Positions 11,802 through 32,000 of a stretch of 32,000 bases of DNA are shown piece by piece. The stretch lies in the NCBI RefSeq assembly GCF_016282985.1, contig NZ_JAEELZ010000041.1, positions 17,498-49,497 on the forward strand, in the 5' to 3' direction. Both the position numbers and the translations under genes were made by a program. This stretch comes from Methanosphaera sp. GTDB taxonomy: Archaea; Methanobacteriota; Methanobacteria; Methanobacteriales; Methanobacteriaceae. The notes below the pieces were generated by a model, which saw nothing but the letters and a program-made list of their open reading frames with translations, was not told where the DNA came from and did not search any database. Position 1 is the first letter of the stretch; every line of letters starts with the position of its first letter.

Positions 11802-13940
11802 ATGAAAACGAAGTATTTGTTCTCATTTATCGCATTAATTATATTATTTTTTTCAGTAAGTTGTGTTTTTGCAGTAGATGATTTTACTACATTGGATCAA
11901 TCTGCTTCTGTAAGTCAGGAATCTGATATTACTCTTGAAAAAATTAATCAAGTAAATGTAGATAATCATGTATCGATTAAGGGTAACGTAACGGATAATA
12001 ATGGTCAAGCCATTAAAAATACTGATGTTAATGTTTCATTAACAAGATTAGGTTATGGTGATAATGAATATTTGCCTGTAGCTTCAGAAATTATAAAAAC
12101 TGATGAAAATGGTGTTTATAATTATTCTTATAAATCCGATATTGGTGGACAATTAAATATCACTGTATTTAATAAAGATATTAACAAAGGGGTTAATGCA
12201 TCAGTATTTATCGCACCAAAATCTACAAATGTTTCAATGACTGATCTTGAAGATATTGATTTGGGAGATGCTGTTAATATTACCGGAAAATTAACGGATT
12301 GTGACGGTAATGTTCTTAGATATACTGGAGTTGGTGTATTGATTTCAGGTAAAGGATACGGTGAAAAAAATATAACCCAATATGTTAAGGAATACGTCAA
12401 AACGGATAAAGATGGTAATTACAATTATCTTTACAAACCAGTTGTTGGTGGAAGTTTAGATGTATGCGTTTATTATGGGGGATATCATTATTACCGATTT
12501 AATCAATCAACTTCACATTTATGGGTCATGCCAAAATCAACCAAGGTTTCATTAAATGAAATACAAAAAACTGGTGATGAAATTTTCACGATAAGTGGTA
12601 GATTAACTGATGTGAATGATAAACCTTTGAGAAATACTAGTGTTGGATTATTATTCAATGGCGGTGAGAAAGTATATGTTAAAACGGATCTGTCCGGAAA
12701 TTTCACCTATGATTACATTCCTAAGTATACTGGAATAACAAGAGTTACAGCATACTATCCGGGATATCAAGTTTACAGATTCAACAAAACAGAAACTGTA
12801 CTTGATGTTGATGCAAAAGAATTAATTGTTACTATAGAGCCTATTAAAGATGTTTTTGTAGGGGATAATATTATAGTATATGGTAAAGTGACAGATGAAA
12901 ATGGAGTTTCAATAAGTAATATGGATGTTGAAGTGGTATTACCAAAAGAGTATACTCGAGATAAAAAAGATGTTACAAGGAAAGATAGGACATATAATGG
13001 TTTATTCTCGGCTAATTTTGAATATTACCGTACTCATCCGGTTGATGGAAATATAACTTTATTAATAAATATAATTGGAAATAAAAAGCCAGTAAATATA
13101 AATACATATACTTTCGAGTATCCTAAACCAGTTACTAAAATAGGTAGGGTGATTTTGGATCCTATAAAAAATATTACATTTGGTGAAAATTTAACAATAT
13201 CTGGTAAAGTCATTGATGAAAATAATATGCCAATTAAACATAGAAAAATGACGATTTTCATTGATGATTCTAGAAAATTTGTTACAACAGATGAAAATGG
13301 ATTATTTGCTCTATCAACTAGTTATTTGGATCCTAGTGGTCATGATATAGGTCAACATCATGTGTATGTATTATTTGATCATCAAAATAATTTTTTCGAG
13401 GATAAAGTAGTTCAATCATCAGAATTTTCAATTAAAGATTTAACTGACTATTCAAATTTTCCAATGTATACTTTTGATATCTTAAGTTCATATAATAGGA
13501 ATGCATTTTTATCATTCGATATAGTATGGGCAGCTCGCTATAGAGATGATTATCAATCAACTGTTGTAGCCGCTTTTATTTTTGATGATTCAGGTAACAC
13601 TGATGGAATTAATGGTTTTGGTACTTCTCGTAAATATCATCCAATAAGTTTTTCAAGTGCGGGTTGTGATTTTTCAAAACAGTCAGCAACATATACGTTA
13701 TATGCAAGAAAAATTTATTATTCGACTGTTACTACTGTTAAATATTTAGTAAGGATAGGAACTCCAAATTCTTTAAGATATTATTATTATAACTCTTCTA
13801 AATTCACTGAAAGCAATCAATATGTGCAAAATAATGACTATAAATGGTTGAGAATTGCGAAAGTCACTGTGGATAATGGAGAATTCAAATCAATTGAACA
13901 TCTTCTTCCAGTGGATGAGGAATATGTAACATATTATTAA
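11802..13940 (+). CDS. Secreted adhesin-like protein with about six carboxypeptidase-regulatory-like (Ig-like beta-sandwich) repeats and an unassigned C-terminal domain
   Basis: 712 aa with GGAGG 6 nt upstream and a signal peptide (MKTKYLFSFIALIILFFSVSCVFA). An ~100-aa unit recurs: I(K/T/S)G(N/K/R)(V/L)TD.(N/D)G..(I/L).N(T)..V...... (V/I)KTD.(N/D)G.(Y/F).Y.Y. The last ~190 aa match nothing I recognise. Confidence 0.8.
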   Translation: MKTKYLFSFIALIILFFSVSCVFAVDDFTTLDQSASVSQESDITLEKINQVNVDNHVSIKGNVTDNNGQAIKNTDVNVSLTRLGYGDNEYLPVASEIIKTDENGVYNYSYKSDIGGQLNITVFNKDINKGVNASVFIAPKSTNVSMTDLEDIDLGDAVNITGKLTDCDGNVLRYTGVGVLISGKGYGEKNITQYVKEYVKTDKDGNYNYLYKPVVGGSLDVCVYYGGYHYYRFNQSTSHLWVMPKSTKVSLNEIQKTGDEIFTISGRLTDVNDKPLRNTSVGLLFNGGEKVYVKTDLSGNFTYDYIPKYTGITRVTAYYPGYQVYRFNKTETVLDVDAKELIVTIEPIKDVFVGDNIIVYGKVTDENGVSISNMDVEVVLPKEYTRDKKDVTRKDRTYNGLFSANFEYYRTHPVDGNITLLINIIGNKKPVNINTYTFEYPKPVTKIGRVILDPIKNITFGENLTISGKVIDENNMPIKHRKMTIFIDDSRKFVTTDENGLFALSTSYLDPSGHDIGQHHVYVLFDHQNNFFEDKVVQSSEFSIKDLTDYSNFPMYTFDILSSYNRNAFLSFDIVWAARYRDDYQSTVVAAFIFDDSGNTDGINGFGTSRKYHPISFSSAGCDFSKQSATYTLYARKIYYSTVTTVKYLVRIGTPNSLRYYYYNSSKFTESNQYVQNNDYKWLRIAKVTVDNGEFKSIEHLLPVDEEYVTYY

Positions 13941-13946
13941 AAATCC

Positions 13947-13963
13947 TTTTTTTTCTTTTTTTT
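13947..13963 (+). terminator. Oligo-T terminator of the 712-aa adhesin gene
   Basis: The sequence is T8-C-T8, starting 7 nt after the stop codon. Archaeal termination occurs at oligo-T tracts. Confidence 0.55.
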
Positions 13964-14094
13964 GAAAATTATTTTTTAAATTTATTTTGTAAAGATTTAT
14001 TGTTTATATAAATCCAATGAGTAATCTCTTTTTAAAATTAGCATATTATAATTGATGATTTTTAAAATTTTATTAGAATAGTTAGAAAGGTGGT

Positions 14095-14127
14095 TAAAAA
14101 AAAGAAATGTATTGATTCTAAACGAAT

Positions 14128-14128
<1 letters not shown>
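14095..14128 (-). terminator. gdhA terminator: short hairpin plus T9
   Basis: GATTC-TAAAC-GAATC (14114-14128) overlaps the stop codon by 1 nt. T9 on the minus strand (A9 at 14095-14103) follows. Confidence 0.5.
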
Positions 14129-15477
<1,349 letters not shown>

Positions 15478-15526
15478 CTATAATAATTTTATTATTTCTT
15501 AGTATCGTTTGGTATTAAGAACATAG

Positions 15527-15540
15527 GAAACATATTTCCG
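15527..15540. promoter_or_regulatory. GGAA-N6-TTCC palindrome (NrpR nitrogen-operator consensus) in the gdhA promoter
   Basis: The sequence is GGAAACATATTTCC, a perfect GGAAA-N4-TTTCC inverted repeat. It lies 65-78 nt upstream of the gdhA ATG and 13-15 nt downstream of the TATA-like box, where the transcription start is expected. Confidence 0.45.
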
Positions 15541-15552
15541 TTTCCTCTACAC

Positions 15553-15563
15553 TTATATATGGT
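15553..15563 (-). promoter_or_regulatory. Putative TATA box of gdhA
   Basis: The minus strand reads CCATATATAAG, about 95 nt upstream of the gdhA start codon. This is the only strong TATA-like element close to the gene. Confidence 0.4.
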
Positions 15564-15730
15564 TTTCATAGTATTTATAATTATTTTTTATAGTGTTTAA
15601 AAAAGCTATTTTGTTTAATTTTATAGTTATTTAAATTAATTTTTCTAAAAATTTTTTAAACCTTGTCCTTTTTTCTTTATTTTGTTTAATTCTGTGATTC
15701 TATTTTTATGTTTTTGTTTTATCAAATTCT

Positions 15731-15803
15731 TTGTTATAACTACTATCTTATTAACTTATATCTTATTTCTTATAACTAAAAAGTTATAACTTATAACTTA
15801 TAA
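15731..15803. repeat. Intergenic palindromic repeat family, copy C (extended)
   Basis: GTTATAAC is at 15733-15740. CTTATTTCTTATAACT at 15762-15777 is shared with copy D. The identical 18-mer core is at 15781-15798. Confidence 0.8.
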
Positions 15804-23709: not shown

Positions 23710-24601
23710 AATTTAACCTCCAGTTTCTTTTACATTTTTTTATGGATATTTAAAATTATATTACTAACATTTAATATTATTATTGTTTAAGTGACGATAT
23801 TTATTTAGAGTATGATTCTTTTGTTTTGTCTTTCTTTTTTGTATTTAAAAATAAAATAAGGTATATATTTCATGTATATGTATATCATAAAAATGTAAGA
23901 TTTTATTAATAAAGTAGGTTATTTAATATTTTAACTGGAATAAAATGGCATGTAATTAGAAAATAACTAAAATTATGTTGGTTGTATTTTATTATTTTTA
24001 ATTGTAATTTACTTTGTAAATGCGTTATTTTATTATGATGTTTTGTCTTTAAAAAATTGATTGTTAGTATTTTATTTTTAATTTATCTTGAGTATATTGT
24101 TTTGATATTGAATATATTAATTAATTGTTTTTAATTAATAAAATTATTATTTTTTTTATTAATAATTATCTTGTTAATCATTTTAAAATAGTTTTTTTTT
24201 ATTAAAAATTGAACATGTTTCAAATATTTTTTTTCATATTAACTAATTTTCATCAGGATTTCTATTTTTTAAAAATTTTTCATAAATCTTTAATATAATC
24301 AATTTGTTTTTAAAATAATTAATTATATGAGTTAATTTTATGGTATAATAAAATAATATAATTATATATAGCAATTTATTCTATAAAATAACTTCAAATT
24401 AAAAATTATTAAAGGATTTATTAAAAAATAAGTTCTAATGTAATTTTTTTGGATATTTCAAATAGTAAAAAATGTATTTGGCAATATCCTATATAAAAAA
24501 TTTAGTTATATCTATAAATTGACTATATATTTTATCTTTTACTTTTGTACCGGAAGTAGGATAAAATTATTTATTAAAACAATGTTTTTTAAGGAGTCAA
24601 C

Positions 24602-27600
24602 ATGAAATTTAATAAGAAATATTGTCTTTTATTTCTTATGACAGTTCTTGTTCTACTCTTGGGTGCGGGAATGGTTTCTGCATCCGAAGCAGGCAGTGAT
24701 GTCCAAGTAATAAAAGACAATCAAGTTTTATCCACACCCGACAATTATGATGTGGATAAAGTGGTACAATCCGATAGGATTCTAACCAAATCGGAGGCAA
24801 ACGTAGAAAAGACAAGCACAAAAGATGACACAAAAAATAACATCAAATCCAATATAGACACATTTGTTAACACATCTAAAACAAATGGAGACAATCAAAC
24901 AATTGCTAATGATAAAAGTCATGGTGCAAAAATTAGTGTTAATGAAATTAGTGGAAGAACATTAAACATTGCAGGCCTGGAAAATTCCGGACTATTGCAA
25001 GAAACAATAGATGTTAAAAAAATATCTGTTAGCGACACAAACAGTATGTCCCTAAATGAAGATATGACTCCTATCTTCAAGGATAATGCTGAAGTTTCTT
25101 CAAATGATGGAATTGACATTAATACAAAGTCAAATAATCAATTACAAGAAACAGACAAAACCATAGTTAAAGAAAATCTTAACCAAAATGTCAAAACAGC
25201 TGATGGTGAAGACTCTGATGAAAGATATAGTGTTATAGTATTTGATGAGCAATATCAAAGAGTTATATATCAGAAACCATGGTTGATGAATGATACTACA
25301 TGGGTATTTTCATTAGGTGCTGGTGAAAACCAAGGCTCTGGTGCAAACCAAAACCTTACTCCGGCATATCAATACTCTTCTAAACCTGTGGGAATATATA
25401 AAAGGATTAAACTGACTGATGATTATGAGATTATTCATCCAATAACAGGTGAAAATATCTTGCCTTATGTTAGAACATTAATCTACAATAATTTTGATAT
25501 TGGGGTTATTGGTTCACACAGCAATGATTTACAAATAGTTGTCAGTAAATTTTCAAATCCTAAAATCAATTACACAAATATCACTTCTATTCCTACTCAA
25601 TCAGTATATAATGGAACTATCCGAGATTATGTAAACAGGACCATTAATCAGGTTCAATCTGGAAATGCCGTGAGCAGTTCTGGTAAATACAAGGATTCAG
25701 ATTTCTTGACTTATCAGTTTTATTTATATAAGGCTGATGAAGAGTTGAATGAATATCATCATTTTGATGCTATTGGATTCCAAATATTATCTAACATTAA
25801 TGTTAAAAAAATATGGAATGATACAAATCATACTAGTGAAAGACCGGATAATGTTACCGTAAAATTATATGCTGATGGTAATAATATTAAAAATATTACT
25901 CTAAATGAATCAAATGATTGGAAAGGTAACTTTACAGATTTACCAGTATATGCTATAGATGAAAATCCAAATCCATTAAATTCAAGTAATTGTCGAATTA
26001 CTGTAGAACCTATTGAACTTGTTGATTTAAATATCAGAAGAACAAGTACTGGAACATGGTATTATAATATCACTGCGAATGGTGAATCTATTATGGGGGT
26101 TTTTACTCTATCTTATAGTTCTAAATCTGTATTTTATAGAAATTTACCAAAATATGATTCAAATGGAAACGAAATTGTCTATGGTGCAATCAGGACTAAT
26201 AGTGCTGGTAAAATATATTCAGCAACTCAAAACTATTTCACAGTTACTACAACAGATAAAACCGGTCAAAATATAACAATACAGGTATATAATAAATCCG
26301 AAAATGAAACCATGCATCTTGGATTGTATCGAAATGGTTCTTTGTGTAATGAGTTCAATGCTTCAGGGGATAATTATACCTTTGCATTTTTAAGAGCTGA
26401 TTCAACATCAAGTTATGAATTAGTCAGATACGATATCATGCACGTGGTTAATTATACCATTGGTGAAGTAGCGGATCCTGATGTTTATGACCAAATTATT
26501 AATGTTACTACTGTGGATATTGGCCCATTGCATAATTCATTAAGAACTTCCATAATATCTAATGATTTTCTTGTTTACAAGGATAATTTAAATCCACTAA
26601 TTAAAGACATAACAATCACTAATACTTATCCTAATAGACCAAAAATATGGGATAATATTGGATTAAAATATATTACAAGTGAAGATTCTATAGTTTCTGA
26701 TGGAAATTACAGTACTTTGTCCTACTGGTATAAATATAATGTTTATTATTATTGGGATTCTTATGCATTGCCATTTTTAATGAATGATACTACCTGGGCT
26801 TACTGTATAGAACCAAGCAATCGAGCACAACCAAATGGTTTATATGGAGAAGGATTATTACCTGGAAGTTTCAAACGATTGACTTTAACGAATGAAAAGA
26901 TTATTCACCCAGTAACTGGTGAGGACATATTACCTTATCTAAGAACTGCATTATATTATCACTTTAATGATACAGAAAACTTCACTACTCAAAGTGGAGG
27001 AAAACCACAAATAAGGTGGTTATTATATGCATTTACTGGTGGTTACAATTATACTGATCCAAATGCTCCTGAAAGTATGGAAACTTATAGGGCGGATGGA
27101 CCTACCAGAATGGAATTTGTTAGAGAAATTATGGATCTAGTTAAATCTGGTAAAGGAATAAACAACACAGGTTCATTCTATGGTTCTGATTATTTAACAT
27201 ATCAATTCTATATTTATTATACTGAAACTGACAATATTGAAGATCATTACCAAAATACCATTGGTTTCAATATTTTAACTAAAATAAATGTCACCAAAGA
27301 CTGGAAAGATTTTGACAATATTGATAATACCAGGCCAGAGAATATAACTGTGGACTTATTGGCTGATAATGTTGTTGTCGCTAATGCTACATTAAATTCA
27401 ACAAATGGTTGGAAGTATAATTTTACAGATTTACCAGTTTATAAAATATATAATGAAGAAGTTAAAGAACCAGACTTTACAGTTACAACTACAACTGCAG
27501 AGGCATGGAATGTAACAGTTAAATTGAACTGGGTTGATGGTACACCTACAGCAGATCATGTTATTGTTTATCCAATAAAAGGATCACAATATCTTCAACC

Positions 27601-30600
27601 ATATCTTTATTTATCCGAAGATAATGATTGGACTGGTAACATAATCTTACCTGTGTATAATTATAGAACCGGTGCTGAAATAACAAACTATAATTTCAGA
27701 TCCAGTAATGGAAATGCAACTTTGGTACTAACTAATGTAACTATTTCTGATGGAGTTAAAAATATTAAGGTAGTACTTAATAATGAAGCTTTAAAAGAAG
27801 AATGGGTTACAGTAGCATTAACAGAAGACGGTTATGAATTCAGGGGAGAACTATTAAATACAGAGAATCCTGAATGTACTTTCGCTGATTTAATCAATTA
27901 TAATGAGGAAGGTAATGAAATTAATTACAATTTAACCATGAGAAGATATGGATGTATTAATGTAATTAATTACACTATCAATGAAACAGGTATTCCTGGT
28001 GAATACACAGTTAAAATAACAAATCATAGTGAAGAAATTAATCCTTTAATGCCAACAAGGGAACAAAATTCAGAAAAATATGTCCATGAATTAATTAATC
28101 CTTTAAATAATCTTTCAACAAGTTTCGAAATTGTAAACACATATGAATTAACCAACTTGACAGTTAAAAAAGTCTGGGATGATTCTGATGATAAAGATGG
28201 TCTAAGACCAAAAAGTATTCAAGTACACATTTATTCTGAAGAAACAGGATATGATGAGGTTATAGTTTTAAACAAAAACAATAACTGGACCAAGACCATA
28301 ACAAAATTACAAAAATATGGTAAAGACTCTTCATTAATACAATATAATGTAGAAGAATTGGAAGTTCCAAATGAATATGCTGTCAGTGTAAAAGAAGATT
28401 CATATAACTTTACAATAACAAATACTCACATACCCGAAATGTTAAGTATATCCGTTGAAAAAGTCTGGAACGATTCTGATGATATTGAAGGCTTCAGACC
28501 ATCAAATGTCACAATTAAAGTTTTAGCTAATGGAGAACAATACGGTGATGAAATCATTCTAACCAATGAAACAAATTGGTCTTATAATGTAACAGGTCTT
28601 CCAAAATACTTAAATGGAAAATTAATGAACTACACTATTGAAGAAATAGTTCCAGAACATTATAATGTTTCTTATAACATATCAAATGTGGATGAAAATA
28701 AGAAAATACCTACAAAAGCACGTGTGGAACTTGTTTCATTTGATACTAATGCTATTACATATCGTATATTTGTTACAAATTTAACAAATGATCTTGTTAA
28801 ATCTGGAAATATCGAGGTTATTGATAAAGAGGGCAATGTTAATGCTACTGGTGAATTATCCGAGGGTTATGTTGATATTCTATGGTCATTAAGTAAAGAT
28901 TTTGAAGTTACAGTTAACTATCTAGGAAATGATGAATATCTTGAAAGTAATACTACTATCAAGGAATCAGAAGTACTTGTTGAATATATGGGTCCGGGAG
29001 TATTGCCATATCTAATGACTGACGGTATTTGGGGATATTGTATTCAGAGAGGAGCACAAGATCCAAACAATGAAATAGGTTCTGATGGTGATACTCCAGT
29101 TTGGATGCCATATAAAAAAATTGCAATGACTAATGAAACCATAATGAATCCAAGAACTCATGAAGATGTACTACCATATATTCGTACATTACTGTTCTAT
29201 CATGCTAAAGATGGTGAAAATTTCACATTAATGGATAATGGTTTGGCAGCTAATATTAATGATCCTAGTATATATATATTTTTAGAGGGCAACAGAACTC
29301 ATTCTGATGGTAGGTATGTAGGCACCCATTATGAGGATCGTAGTACTTATAGTGGTCCTGGGGGGACTGCAGAACTTAATCAAAAAGAAGGTGATGCAGT
29401 TTATGAAGTTTACCAAATGGTTCAAAATGGTAATGCTATTGGAAATAAAGGTGTAGTTAATTATACAGAAAATGGAAAATGGATGTATCAATTTTATTTA
29501 TACAAACCTTTATTACACAGTGCTTGGCAGAGTCTAATTGGTCTAGAATATTATTTTGTTCCTCTAGAACCTAATTACGAAGTAGAAATTATCAATACTC
29601 ACATTCCTGAAAATGTTACTATAAATGTAACCAAAGTATGGAATGACACTGATAATCAGGATGGTATGCGTCCAGTAAACGTTACAGTTGCTTTATTTAA
29701 GGATGGTATTTTAAATGATACTATTGTATTAAATGAATCTAACGGTTGGATGGGTAATTTTACAGATTTACCAAAATATGCTAATGCCCATTTAATTAAT
29801 TATACTGTTAATGAAACGAAAGTTCCTGTAAATTATACTCAAGAAGTTTCAAATTCAGGTAACAATTATACAATTACCAATACTCACATTCCATTAGTAA
29901 CAAGTTTAAATGTTACAAAAAAATGGGATGATAAAAATAATACTGATGGAAAAAGACCTGATGTTATATTAGTTCAGTTATATGCTAATAATGTAACAAA
30001 AGGTGAACCGATATCATTATATAGTGGTAATAATTGGACTTATGTATTTGAAAACTTGGATAAATACAGCAATGGTGTTTTAATCAATTATACTGTTGAT
30101 GAGATAACGGTTCCTGAAGGTTATACTAAAACCATTACAAACAAATCCAATAACTTTACTATAAAGAACACTCATGTTCCTGAAAAAACTACTGTTAACG
30201 TGACTAAGGTATGGAATGATGTTAACAATACTGATGGTTTAAGACCTGTCAGTGTAAACATCACTTTGGTTATTGATGGTAAAAAATCAGATCAGACTGT
30301 TCAGATTAATGCTACTAATTGGACGTATACTTTTGAAAACTTACCAAAATATCGTGACAATGGTACATTAATTAAATATAATGTAACAGAAGAAAAAGTA
30401 GAGAACTATGAAACTACTATTGTATTCTGTGAAGGTATTTTCAAAGTAATCAACTCACATATTCCTGAAAATACTTCAGTAAATGTGACTAAAGTTTGGA
30501 ATGACAATAATAACCAGGATGGTGTTCGTCCTGCTAACGTAACAGTGCAGTTATTACGTGATGGTAAAGAATACAATTCCACAGTATTATCCGAGAATAA

Positions 30601-32000
30601 TAATTGGTATGCTGTATTCAACAATTTACCTAAATATCATGATGAAGGTAAAGAGTACAAATATACTATTATAGAAGTTGCTATTCCTGGTTACTCTGGC
30701 GTTGTTACAAATGTTTCAACAGAATTCACAGTAAACAACACTCACATTCCTGAAAATACTTCAGTAAATGTAAGTAAAGTTTGGAATGATGCAGATAACA
30801 ATGATGCTCTTCGTCCAAACAATGTAACTATAACTTTGGTTATAGATGGTGTTGTAAGTGACAATAAAGTACAAATTAACAGTACAAACTGGAACTACAC
30901 ATTTGAAAACCTTCCTAAGTATCGTGATGGTGGAATTTTAATAGTGTATAATGTTACCGAGGATGCTGTTGAGGATTACACTACTGATATTGTCTTCTGT
31001 GAAGGTAGATTCAAGGTTATCAACACTCATGTTCCTGAAGTTGTTAACAAAACAGTTAACAAGGTTTGGGATGATGCTGATAACAGGGATAATATGAGAC
31101 CTTCTAAAGTTACCATTAAATTGAAATCAAATGATGGTAATGAGTATGTTGCAGTTATTGAGGAAGTTAACGGAAAATGGAATTACACATTCACTGATTT
31201 ACCAAAATATGCAAATGGTAAATTAATTGAATATACAGTAGAGGAAAGTGTTGTTCCTGATGGTTATGATGTTGAATATGATCAGGATACATTAACAATA
31301 ACCAACATTCATGAATTCTTAACTAAGGAAATAAATGTTGTTAAAGTATGGGATGATGCTGATACAGCTAAAGATCGTCCTGAAAATATTACAGTCTTCT
31401 TAGTTGCTGATGACGAAGTTGTTGCCAATCTTACTTTAACTGGTGATAAATGGACTGATAAGTTCGCAGACTTGCCAGTATATAAAGAAGGAGAAGTTGG
31501 TGTGGAAATTGTTTACTCAATTAAAGAGTTAACAGTTGCTAACTACACAACTGTAATAACAAACATTAGCGATGATTGGACCATTACCAACACTCACATT
31601 CCAGAACTTGTAGATATTACAATCAACAAAGTATGGAACGATAACAATAATCAGGACGCTTTAAGAACTAATGTTACCATAATTCTTAAGGCCGAGGGTG
31701 TAAACGTTCAAAATGGAACAGTTCAAGTCAACAGTACTGATGACTGGACATACACATTCAGTAATTTACCTAAGTATGCAAATGGTAAAGAAATAGTTTA
31801 CACAATTGAAGAGGTTGTACCTTATGGTTACACCGTAACAATTGAAGGTTATACTATTACCAACACCCATGAAGTATACACCAAGGAAATTAACGTGACA
31901 AAAGTTTGGAATGATAACAATGATAATGACAATGCCAGAATGGATGTTGTTGTTGAATTACTGGCTGATGGTGAAAAGGTAGATGAAACCACTCTTAATG
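24602..32000 (+). CDS. Giant secreted adhesin-like protein (more than 2,466 aa, 3' end outside window): signal peptide, N/T/S-rich linker, three thioester-domain-like modules, many Cna-B-type repeats
   Basis: This ORF is not in the supplied track. AAGGAG (24591-24596) is followed by a 5-nt spacer and ATG 24602. I translated every codon through 27300 and from 27301 to 29940, and read the rest by eye; I found no in-frame stop to base 32000. The signal peptide is MKFNKKYCLLFLMTVLVLLLGAGMVSA. All track ORFs in this span are short and antisense or out of frame. Confidence 0.9.
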   Translation, partial: MKFNKKYCLLFLMTVLVLLLGAGMVSASEAGSDVQVIKDNQVLSTPDNYDVDKVVQSDRILTKSEANVEKTSTKDDTKNNIKSNIDTFVNTSKTNGDNQTIANDKSHGAKISVNEISGRTLNIAGLENSGLLQETIDVKKISVSDTNSMSLNEDMTPIFKDNAEVSSNDGIDINTKSNNQLQETDKTIVKENLNQNVKTADGEDSDERYSVIVFDEQYQRVIYQKPWLMNDTTWVFSLGAGENQGSGANQNLTPAYQYSSKPVGIYKRIKLTDDYEIIHPITGENILPYVRTLIYNNFDIGVIGSHSNDLQIVVSKFSNPKINYTNITSIPTQSVYNGTIRDYVNRTINQVQSGNAVSSSGKYKDSDFLTYQFYLYKADEELNEYHHFDAIGFQILSNINVKKIWNDTNHTSERPDNVTVKLYADGNNIKNITLNESNDWKGNFTDLPVYAIDENPNPLNSSNCRITVEPIELVDLNIRRTSTGTWYYNITANGESIMGVFTLSYSSKSVFYRNLPKYDSNGNEIVYGAIRTNSAGKIYSATQNYFTVTTTDKTGQNITIQVYNKSENETMHLGLYRNGSLCNEFNASGDNYTFAFLRADSTSSYELVRYDIMHVVNYTIGEVADPDVYDQIINVTTVDIGPLHNSLRTSIISNDFLVYKDNLNPLIKDITITNTYPNRPKIWDNIGLKYITSEDSIVSDGNYSTLSYWYKYNVYYYWDSYALPFLMNDTTWAYCIEPSNRAQPNGLYGEGLLPGSFKRLTLTNEKIIHPVTGEDILPYLRTALYYHFNDTENFTTQSGGKPQIRWLLYAFTGGYNYTDPNAPESMETYRADGPTRMEFVREIMDLVKSGKGINNTGSFYGSDYLTYQFYIYYTETDNIEDHYQNTIGFNILTKINVTKDWKDFDNIDNTRPENITVDLLADNVVVANATLNSTNGWKYNFTDLPVYKIYNEEVKEPDFTVTTTTAEAWNVTVKLNWVDGTPTADHVIVYPIKGSQYLQPYLYLSEDNDWTGNIILPVYNYRTGAEITNYNFRSSNGNATLVLTNVTISDGVKNIKVVLNNEALKEEWVTVALTEDGYEFRGELLNTENPECTFADLINYNEEGNEINYNLTMRRYGCINVINYTINETGIPGEYTVKITNHSEEINPLMPTREQNSEKYVHELINPLNNLSTSFEIVNTYELTNLTVKKVWDDSDDKDGLRPKSIQVHIYSEETGYDEVIVLNKNNNWTKTITKLQKYGKDSSLIQYNVEELEVPNEYAVSVKEDSYNFTITNTHIPEMLSISVEKVWNDSDDIEGFRPSNVTIKVLANGEQYGDEIILTNETNWSYNVTGLPKYLNGKLMNYTIEEIVPEHYNVSYNISNVDENKKIPTKARVELVSFDTNAITYRIFVTNLTNDLVKSGNIEVIDKEGNVNATGELSEGYVDILWSLSKDFEVTVNYLGNDEYLESNTTIKESEVLVEYMGPGVLPYLMTDGIWGYCIQRGAQDPNNEIGSDGDTPVWMPYKKIAMTNETIMNPRTHEDVLPYIRTLLFYHAKDGENFTLMDNGLAANINDPSIYIFLEGNRTHSDGRYVGTHYEDRSTYSGPGGTAELNQKEGDAVYEVYQMVQNGNAIGNKGVVNYTENGKWMYQFYLYKPLLHSAWQSLIGLEYYFVPLEPNYEVEIINTHIPENVTINVTKVWNDTDNQDGMRPVNVTVALFKDGILNDTIVLNESNGWMGNFTDLPKYANAHLINYTVNETKVPVNYTQEVSNSGNNYTITNTHIPLVTSLNVTKKWDDKNNTDGKRPDVILVQLYANNVTKGEPISLYSGNNWTYVFENLDKYSNGVLINYTVDEITVPEGYTKTITNKSNNFTIKNTHVPEKTTVNVTKVWNDVNNTDGLRPVSVNITLVIDGKKSDQTVQINATNWTYTFENLPKYRDNGTLIKYNVTEEKVENYETTIVFCEGIFKVINSHIPENTSVNVTKVWNDNNNQDGVRPANVTVQLLRDGKEYNSTVLSENNNWYAVFNNLPKYHDEGKEYKYTIIEVAIPGYSGVVTNVSTEFTVNNTHIPENTSVNVSKVWNDADNNDALRPNNVTITLVIDGVVSDNKVQINSTNWNYTFENLPKYRDGGILIVYNVTEDAVEDYTTDIVFCEGRFKVINTHVPEVVNKTVNKVWDDADNRDNMRPSKVTIKLKSNDGNEYVAVIEEVNGKWNYTFTDLPKYANGKLIEYTVEESVVPDGYDVEYDQDTLTITNIHEFLTKEINVVKVWDDADTAKDRPENITVFLVADDEVVANLTLTGDKWTDKFADLPVYKEGEVGVEIVYSIKELTVANYTTVITNISDDWTITNTHIPELVDITINKVWNDNNNQDALRTNVTIILKAEGVNVQNGTVQVNSTDDWTYTFSNLPKYANGKEIVYTIEEVVPYGYTVTIEGYTITNTHEVYTKEINVTKVWNDNNDNDNARMDVVVELLADGEKVDETTLN
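25225..25795 (+). other. TED-like module 1 (degenerate: Ser and Asp at the positions of the Cys and Gln in modules 2/3)
   Basis: It is paralogous to modules 2 and 3, sharing LMNDTTW, IIHPITGENILPYVRT, LTYQFYLY and AIGF. It has WVFSLG (Ser codon 25310-25312) and HHFDAIGF (Asp codon 25766-25768). Confidence 0.5.
26752..27285 (+). other. TED-like module 2 (putative internal Cys-Gln thioester domain)
   Basis: It has NDTTWAYCIEPS (Cys codon 26804-26806) and DHYQNTIGF (Gln codon 27251-27253), with the Gln 149 residues after the Cys. A Cna-B-type domain follows directly. Confidence 0.5.
28148..28690 (+). repeat. Two Cna-B-type domain repeats (coding)
   Basis: Repeat 1: LTVKKVWDDSDDKDGLRP...NW...KLQKYG...YNVEELEVPNEY...FTITNTH. 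Repeat 2: ISVEKVWNDSDDIEGFRP...NW...GLPKY...YTIEEIVPEHY. Confidence 0.75.
28982..29575 (+). other. TED-like module 3 (putative internal Cys-Gln thioester domain)
   Basis: It has DGIWGYCIQRG (Cys codon 29039-29041) and SAWQSLIGL (Gln codon 29528-29530), with the Gln 163 residues after the Cys. It is flanked by Ig-like/Cna-B domains. Confidence 0.5.
29596..32000 (+). repeat. Tandem array of nine Cna-B-type domain repeats (last one truncated by the window edge), period ~272-290 bp
   Basis: The T-H-(I/V)-P / I-H-E-F / T-H-E-V linkers start at 29596, 29881, 30171, 30454, 30741, 31024, 31306, 31592 and 31864. Each unit reads V.KVW(N/D)D..N.D..RP..V.(V/I).L.......NW.Y.F..LPKY..G..I.Y.V.E..VP.GY......(I/V).N(T/S)H. 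Confidence 0.85.

Follow-up and report, generated by a model that had tools for sequence, protein, structure and literature searches.

We have analysed a 32,000-nucleotide stretch of DNA from Methanosphaera sp. (contig NZ_JAEELZ010000041.1, positions 17,498 to 49,497 of the forward strand; hereafter the window, with positions counted from its first nucleotide) and, in particular, the very long open reading frame (ORF) that begins at position 24602. This ORF encodes a giant secreted, adhesin-like protein of Methanosphaera, probably a fibrillar adhesin, with a stalk of Cna_B isopeptide-type domains, into which three related modules of about 200 residues are set. Two of these, modules 2 and 3, we are inclined to regard as a divergent and so far unrecognised archaeal class of thioester domain (TED). 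From their motifs, conservation, profile similarity and predicted fold we infer that they are homologous to TEDs, that a Cys and a Gln would lie close together in space in each of them, and that a thioester bond would form between the two. The further step, to which we give a probability of about one half, is that the modules are functional, self-activating Cys-Gln warheads; they would then be the first covalent “harpoon” adhesins in Archaea and a new compact class of TED, found only in gut and rumen Methanobacteriaceae. This reading includes, at the same even odds, up to three active copies and one decoy along a single isopeptide-type stalk.

A profile built from the family recovers three paralogous modules in the adhesin (hmmsearch; residues 205-403, 699-899 and 1453-1662), all of them, like every adhesin feature given below, on the plus strand. 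Module 2 (26696-27298) contains Cys735 in a YCIE context (codon 26804-26806, within ...NDTTWAYCIEPS..., WAYCIEPS) and, 149 residues further towards the C-terminus, Gln884 in a YQNTI context (27251-27253, DHYQNTIGF). Module 3 (28958-29587) has Cys1480 in YCIQ (29039-29041, ...DGIWGYCIQRG...) and, 163 residues C-terminal of it, Gln1643 in WQSLI (29528-29530, SAWQSLIGL). An earlier, sequence-only reading of this DNA had already singled out these four residues, and both its positions and its spacings proved exact on translation; the two modules that it described are real and, as it had claimed and the alignment confirms, true paralogues. What it overlooked is a third and degenerate copy, which comes first in the chain. 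This module 1 (25214-25810; 271 bits by hmmsearch with the family profile) has Ser237 (25310-25312) in place of the Cys and Phe388 (25763-25765) in place of the Gln.

In known TEDs the bond-forming Cys is found in a [YFL]CΦζ motif and the Gln in a weak ΦQζΦΦ motif, both within β-strands (PMC4450167, PMC6194298), and these two are the sole residues that are universally conserved (PMC4450167). Both of the Cys contexts in modules 2 and 3 agree with the first motif, and both of the Gln contexts agree with the second, which, being weak, has a low specificity. A third TED motif, the helical TQxxΦW (formerly TQxA(I/V)W), has a Gln and a Trp that are non-essential (PMC4450167, PMC6194298), and some TEDs do without it (PMC4450167). 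It was against this helical motif that the sequence-only reading had held the archaeal Gln and judged the match to be loose; that was the wrong comparison, as the bond-forming Gln belongs to ΦQζΦΦ, which is well matched here. The pair that the same reading had given for Spy0125, Cys426-Gln575, is the correct one (PMC4282584).

The two residues were followed through 20 full-length modules of homologous proteins. Eighteen of these have the Cys and eighteen the equivalent of Gln884, and it is the same two modules that lack both: module 1 of the window (Ser/Phe) and module 1 of the orthologue P0010 (Glu/Tyr). In the 18 others the contexts can be written as [YFWV]C[ILVT][EDQNHM] and [YWF]Q[NSQATRED][ILMT][ILV]. 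First modules of further orthologues are degenerate too, with Ser/Phe in L011, a locus from a metagenome-assembled genome (MAG) of Methanosphaera stadtmanae, Ser/Phe again in L012, and Gly/Asn in L024. No module with just one of the two residues occurs among the 20, nor among modules 1 to 4 of L011, module 1 of L012 and modules 1 and 2 of L024, wherever both positions are visible. Such a pattern, with both residues conserved in the same columns in 18 modules of 20, is far beyond chance. Module 1 and its orthologues keep the fold-defining LMND, LPYxRT and YQFY; the two positions were thus released from constraint jointly, with the remainder of the fold still conserved. Each module has one conserved Cys, so we have rejected a role for it in a disulfide. 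A different partner for the Cys, Gln868 on the YQFY strand, was also considered and rejected: module 1 has this Gln although it has no Cys, and P0019, which does have the Cys, carries a His at that position.

Among the Pfam models, PF20610 (TED_2) matches module 2 with 20.5 bits (E=5e-4; cut-off 27); modules 1 and 3 have no TED_2 match. How such a score should be read can be judged from the adhesin of the conjugative plasmid pLS20 (NC_015148, 6477-8780), which contains an experimentally supported TED and acts in mating-pair formation (PMC8092201). This control scores 28.8 bits on TED_2 (cut-off 27) and 23.6 bits on TED (cut-off 22). Since the pLS20 domain only just passes, the 20.5 bits of module 2 are close to the score of a real TED. 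A nine-sequence profile of its plasmid relatives gets no further than E=1.7e-4 with SaTIE-TED (6FX6), and that over the N-terminal part alone. TEDs diverge so strongly from one another that it is normal for genuine ones to score near the threshold.

A profile-profile comparison does point to thioester domains. When 18 modules of the archaeal family were aligned by hhalign with a profile of nine authentic TEDs of class II, drawn from conjugative plasmids with pLS20 as the seed, the two profiles matched with a probability of 71.6% (P=3.5e-5, score 40.4), in an alignment centred on the Cys strand. By comparison, 150 column shuffles of the plasmid profile gave a mean score of 12.4 (standard deviation 1.9, maximum 20.1), and the reversed profile gave 11.2. 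The two archaeal sub-families, taken separately, each match the plasmid TEDs at P~1e-4. For the group that contains module 2, the alignment is collinear over 71 columns that run across the Cys strand, helix α1 (RTxxYYxF vs aiLYYGxG) and helix α2. When the mact setting is relaxed, the alignment of the archaeal with the plasmid domains covers both of them and places Gln on Gln.

The predicted structure of module 3 points in the same direction. AlphaFold2 (AF2) gave confident models of module 2 (pLDDT, the predicted local distance difference test, 86; pTM, the predicted template modelling score, 0.85) and of module 3 (pLDDT 82.9, pTM 0.82), and both have N-terminal β-strands, three main helices and a C-terminal β-hairpin. 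The predicted β-α3-β order is the general order described for TEDs. In both models the Cys ends a β-strand (53-56 in the model of module 2) just before a long loop, and the Gln stands at the start of the last β-strand, the second of the C-terminal hairpin. Searched with Foldseek against a library of 350,542 Protein Data Bank (PDB) chains, the model of module 3 brings up TEDs at ranks 1, 2, 7 and 16. Its best match, essentially over the full length, is the thioester domain of Enterococcus faecium TIE86 (6fwy; E=7.1e-3, probability 0.91, TM score normalised to the query (TMq) 0.38), and the second is TIE of Bacillus anthracis (6fwv; TMq 0.35). Because TEDs are few in the library and the hypothesis had been stated beforehand, a TED in first place is strong evidence as a ranking.

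The proposal of the sequence-only reading, that TED-like Cys...Gln modules are carried on a Cna_B stalk, thus has partial support, from the motifs, the joint retention of the two residues, the profile similarity, the fold match of module 3 and the 15 Cna_B stretches in the ORF (Pfam, E=3.4e-247), and none from the Pfam and NCBIfam thresholds or the fold search with module 2. These and several other results weigh against it. The scan that had been proposed with PF08341 and TIGR03934 came back empty: PF08341 matches neither the whole protein nor any of 18 family members, and no NCBIfam model, those for thioester and TQXA domains included, matches at E≤1 either the whole protein or a single module, while the match to PF20610 remains below its gathering score and occurs in just one of the 18, module 2. 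PDB searches by HMMER with the sequences of modules 2 and 3, and with profiles from the alignment used for genome scanning and from that of the 18 modules, found no TED and only chance matches (UBA6, axin); these are of limited value, as the authentic pLS20 TED has no phmmer match in the PDB either. The profile similarity is significant only around the Cys and in the first two helices, and the region after the Cys, taken by itself, scores at the null level (11.8 vs 12.2). The register that sets Gln on Gln is therefore supported by motif, position and covariation, and not by alignment statistics. As to structure, the confident model of module 2 retrieves no TED by Foldseek (best E=0.76, top TM ~0.1), and the match of module 3 is weak in absolute terms (E=7e-3, TM 0.38, root-mean-square deviation 11.9 Å). 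The helical TQxxΦW is not conserved in the family; in the α2 region module 2 has PQIRWLLYAF and module 3 DPSIYIFLEG, and solely the fourth module of L011 has a helix motif TQEILQ. Finally, the copies that have degenerated are in every case the orthologous first module; Cys and Gln were therefore probably lost in one ancestral event, with later drift at the two positions, and their joint loss counts as one observation.

Much of this would also suit a domain with a TED-related or TED-like fold in which the thioester simply does not form, the module being a non-covalent binding head or a spacer and its Cys and Gln serving in packing, hydrogen bonding or ligand contact. We consider this unlikely, although it is the alternative that survives best. 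In its favour, the first module and its orthologues have kept their fold-defining motifs without the two residues, so the pair is dispensable for the fold, and both the low scores on the curated TED models and the missing TQxxΦW are what it would lead one to expect. On the other hand, packing alone would be a poor explanation for a near-invariant lone Cys in a secreted domain and for a Gln that is lost only together with that Cys. Moreover, both residues sit in exactly the motif contexts of the bond-forming residues of TEDs, the only two residues that known TEDs universally conserve (PMC4450167).

If modules 2 and 3 do act as covalent warheads, their chemistry would presumably be that of the bacterial domains. 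On folding, the Cys of the YCI(E/Q) strand would react with the side-chain amide of the Gln in the (Y/W)Q-x-Φ-Φ strand, an autocatalytic reaction that would release NH3 and give a buried Cys-Gln thioester. This bond could then be attacked by a primary amine of the target, for example a Lys of a surface molecule of the host or of a partner cell, and the outcome would be an intermolecular isopeptide bond with this Gln and a freed thiol, in other words covalent adhesion as in SfbI, Cpa and the pLS20 adhesin. Module 1, which has kept the fold and lost both reactive residues, would be left with a non-covalent or structural role only.

A second alternative accepts the thioester and changes its target from the host to something else: the pseudomurein of the cell itself, neighbouring adhesin chains (self-anchoring or cross-linking), or a bacterial syntrophic partner. 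The precedent is the pLS20 TED adhesin, which works in contacts between microbes and not on a host (PMC8092201). The pseudomurein wall of Methanobacteriales contains amines, a Mur-ligase gene is nearby in the window, and several warheads are spaced along one stalk. However, the complete relatives already have a hydrophobic C-terminal anchor, and it is not obvious that they need a further anchoring chemistry. This alternative, which we think rather improbable, differs from our main reading in the target alone. That the Cys instead belongs to an enzyme displayed on the adhesin stalk, of papain, transglutaminase or other peptidase type, is very improbable indeed: it is true that M. smithii and M. 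stadtmanae have adhesin-like proteins (ALPs) in which transglutaminase-like and papain-family domains have been recorded (PMC11532034), and that the 20 modules show a conserved Cys and an invariant Asp729, but the same modules have no conserved His column (the best has His in 8 of 20), the Cys of the AF2 models is at the end of a β-strand and not at the N-terminus of a helix, no peptidase or transglutaminase family of Pfam or NCBIfam matches at E≤1, and the PDB fold matches of module 3, headed by TEDs, include no peptidase, all of which argues against the Cys-His-Asp hydrolase that the sequence-only reading had itself raised as a counter-possibility.

The family is a small one. Among 1.84 billion representative proteins, an exhaustive HMMER search with a profile of four sequences brought out no more than 14 clusters (E≤1e-3), and word-indexed homologue searches gave 1, 9 and 2 matches. 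The named members all come from Methanobrevibacter or Methanosphaera, together with one MAG contig of 3 kb that bears the label Eubacterium. Their annotations are “Cna B-type domain-containing”, “hypothetical” or “β-helix repeat” protein and in no case a thioester domain. Scans of genomes and metagenomes with a family alignment (A2) added further loci of Methanobrevibacter, several of them with RUG-prefixed isolate names, and of Methanosphaera. By tblastn, module 2 has no relative among 72,556 plasmids. If the modules are indeed TEDs, the combination of module and stalk was probably acquired by the archaeon through gene transfer.

Within the family there is a divergent branch (P0019, P0020 and P0021, among them WP_274871046.1 of Candidatus Methanosphaera massiliense) in which the two motifs take the form FC[VTI][QE] ... 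YQ[DN]M[LI]. In this branch the module is fused to right-handed β-helix or Chlam_PMP repeats and not to Cna_B stalks; shuffling has therefore placed it on two kinds of scaffold among the adhesins of methanogens. Variation is also found between much closer relatives. L011 has an extra segment of ~2.2-2.5 kb (~13547-15765, residues ~2279-2484) with a fourth thioester-like module, YCAD ... YQRTF, and this has no counterpart at ~30250 in the window. A comparison of the two sequences thus indicates that the number of modules and repeats apparently varies between close relatives.

In the stalk, a Cna_B domain stands directly C-terminal of each of the three modules. The one that follows module 1 (25808-26695) is recognised by Pfam over its first ~48 residues only (E=4.3e-15). 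It opens with the start motif KIWND at residue 403 and apparently closes ~240 residues further on; as this end is marked by a ...ITITNTY motif, its sequence suggests a Cna_B domain with a large nested insert of unrecognised fold. Modules 2 and 3 are separated by a spacer stalk (27296-28957) of four Cna_B stretches (Pfam, E=4.3e-58), with start motifs at residues 899, 1190 and 1287. After module 3 comes a tandem array (29633-32000) of at least nine Cna_B repeats, delimited by their starts and by Pfam, with a period of ~95 amino acids (aa), all of which show VTKVW.D..N.DG.RP ... F(T/E)(D/N)LP ... ITNTH. In the Cna_B repeats we take there to be a putative Lys/Asp-Glu/Asn isopeptide triad, on the strength of their sequence and of what is generally known of CnaB domains. 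Some of the repeats have a conserved Cys of their own: Cys1943 (30428-30430) and Cys2133 (30998-31000) are part of a recurring ...IVFCEG(I/R)FKVIN(S/T)H... in the last strand of Cna_B-like repeats, and L011 has the same motif at residues 2793, 2983 and 3919, along with a VNCNG variant.

The C-terminus of the adhesin lies outside the window, and its likely nature can be seen in a complete relative of 1833 aa from Methanobrevibacter (L016; C-terminus at 14339-15058), which ends in ...PDKHATGNP, a hydrophobic helix, IFVLVLVLFTLSV, and RKK. The last two, from their sequence, are a predicted C-terminal anchor. This three-part tail, preceded by a weak DUF7507 match, recalls the LPXTG sorting signals of Gram-positive bacteria and may be either a remnant of a bacterial origin or an archaeal sorting signal. 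With the anchor taken from this relative, the order of signal peptide, thioester-like module and tandem Cna_B stalk is that of the TIE-type architecture, a likeness that does not extend to a demonstrated canonical LPXTG/sortase system.

The adhesin ORF starts with an ATG at 24602 in frame 2 and is free of stop codons to the end of the window, so that the 2466 codons translated (24602-32000) are the 5' part of a longer gene. Its orthologue in L011 has at least 4109 aa and likewise ends at a contig edge. The first 27 codons (24602-24682) can be read as a Sec-type signal peptide, MKFNKKYCLLFLMTVLVLLLGAGMVSA, with a putative cleavage site directly after it, in front of SE; the ...VSASE end of the signal peptide is common to the homologues. 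The protein is rich in Asn (11.7%) and Thr (9.8%) and has only nine Cys among its 2466 residues. Between 24602 and 32000 there are 108 N-x-S/T sequons, against 43 expected from the composition, and the adhesin is probably heavily N-glycosylated. Among these sequons, a conserved N-D-T sits just upstream of each reactive-type Cys.

Upstream of the adhesin gene are a gene of the Mur-ligase family and those for GatD and GatE, which make up the archaeal Glu-tRNA(Gln) amidotransferase. The window, with a G+C content of ~30%, is collinear with the M. stadtmanae MAG contig that carries L011. That the surface protein is archaeal, as the sequence-only reading had it, is borne out by this collinearity and by the adjoining GatD and GatE. 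Between 16677 and 31870, where the window can be compared with L011 (MAG SIG24 contig), identity reaches 95.7% in the adhesin gene, over 6.1 kb, and only 85% in the housekeeping genes on its flanks (GatD/GatE, the Mur ligase and others). This contrast suggests that Methanosphaera lineages have recently exchanged the adhesin gene, that the gene is under unusual constraint, or perhaps that the assembly is chimeric. The ~890-bp intergenic region 5' of the adhesin gene (23710-24601) is very AT-rich and has many stops in the adhesin frame; the composition bin 24001-26000 has 26% G+C. A second secreted adhesin-like protein, of 712 aa and with a signal peptide, is encoded at 11802-13940 on the plus strand; it consists of repeated CarboxypepD_reg and Big_1-type Ig-like domains and is unrelated to the thioester-like module.

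To our knowledge, the way in which gut methanogens attach to their hosts or to syntrophic partners is essentially unknown, and M. stadtmanae is a prevalent and immunogenic archaeon of the human gut. A small and well-delimited module with a directly testable chemistry, and with a Cys- and Gln-less first copy as a natural built-in negative control, would be a concrete molecular handle on this attachment. If our reading is right, Methanosphaera could lock itself covalently onto the host mucosa or onto the bacteria that supply it with H2 and methanol. The adhesin would also be a clear instance of an archaeon with the bacterial-style toolkit for covalent adhesion, a thioester together with an isopeptide stalk. 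In the founding survey, TEDs occurred “exclusively in Gram-positive bacteria” (PMC4450167), and a survey of isopeptide domains from 2025 noted archaeal examples whose partner domains were mostly unrecognised. Two domain surveys of the ALPs of Methanobrevibacter and Methanosphaera mention no thioester, Cna_B or isopeptide domains, and our searches of the full-text literature found no paper that links thioester domains to archaeal adhesins. As the current Pfam and NCBIfam models miss the family, the sequence definition of a TED would have to be widened to include it.

With respect to known systems, what we describe would be a divergent variant of the TED, and nothing categorically new. The nearest proteins by host are the ALPs of Methanobacteriales such as M. 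smithii and M. stadtmanae, which belong to the same organisms and are likewise very large, secreted, repeat-rich and rich in Asn and Thr; some relatives of the module are even fused to the β-helix/Chlam_PMP repeats typical of ALPs, whereas the thioester-like module is not among the ALP domains described. The class I TEDs (Cpa/Spy0125 of Streptococcus pyogenes, SfbI-TED 5A0L, CpTIE 5A0G of Clostridium perfringens and PnTIE 5A0N of S. pneumoniae) resemble the archaeal modules in being compact, with no β-sandwich insert. Their Cys-Gln spacing is similar as well, ~150 residues, with 149 in Spy0125 (PMC4282584) and the same 149 in module 2, against 163 in module 3, and Cpa, with two TEDs per chain (PMC6194298), also has more than one module. 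However, none of the class I structures was matched here by sequence, by profile or by Foldseek. The class II TEDs (EfmTIE86-TED 6FWY, BaTIE 6FWV, SaTIE 6FX6 of Staphylococcus aureus and the adhesin of the B. subtilis plasmid pLS20; PF20610/PF08341) differ from the archaeal modules in having the ~75-residue β-sandwich insert that defines their class and that is absent from a module of only ~200 aa. The latter, in turn, has an extra N-terminal β extension and an insert of 13 to 26 residues between the Cys strand and α1; it also has an archaeal host, no conserved TQxxΦW and scores below the Pfam cut-offs, and it occurs in three to four copies per chain, internally as well as near the N-terminus. 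It shares the following with class II: the Cys and Gln motifs and their placement on β-strands agree, the predicted order of β-structure, three helices and β-structure is the same, α1 bears the signature xxLYYxF, the best fold matches of module 3 and the significant profile match are both to this class, and in both cases the domain follows a signal peptide and is borne by a Cna_B stalk of isopeptide type.

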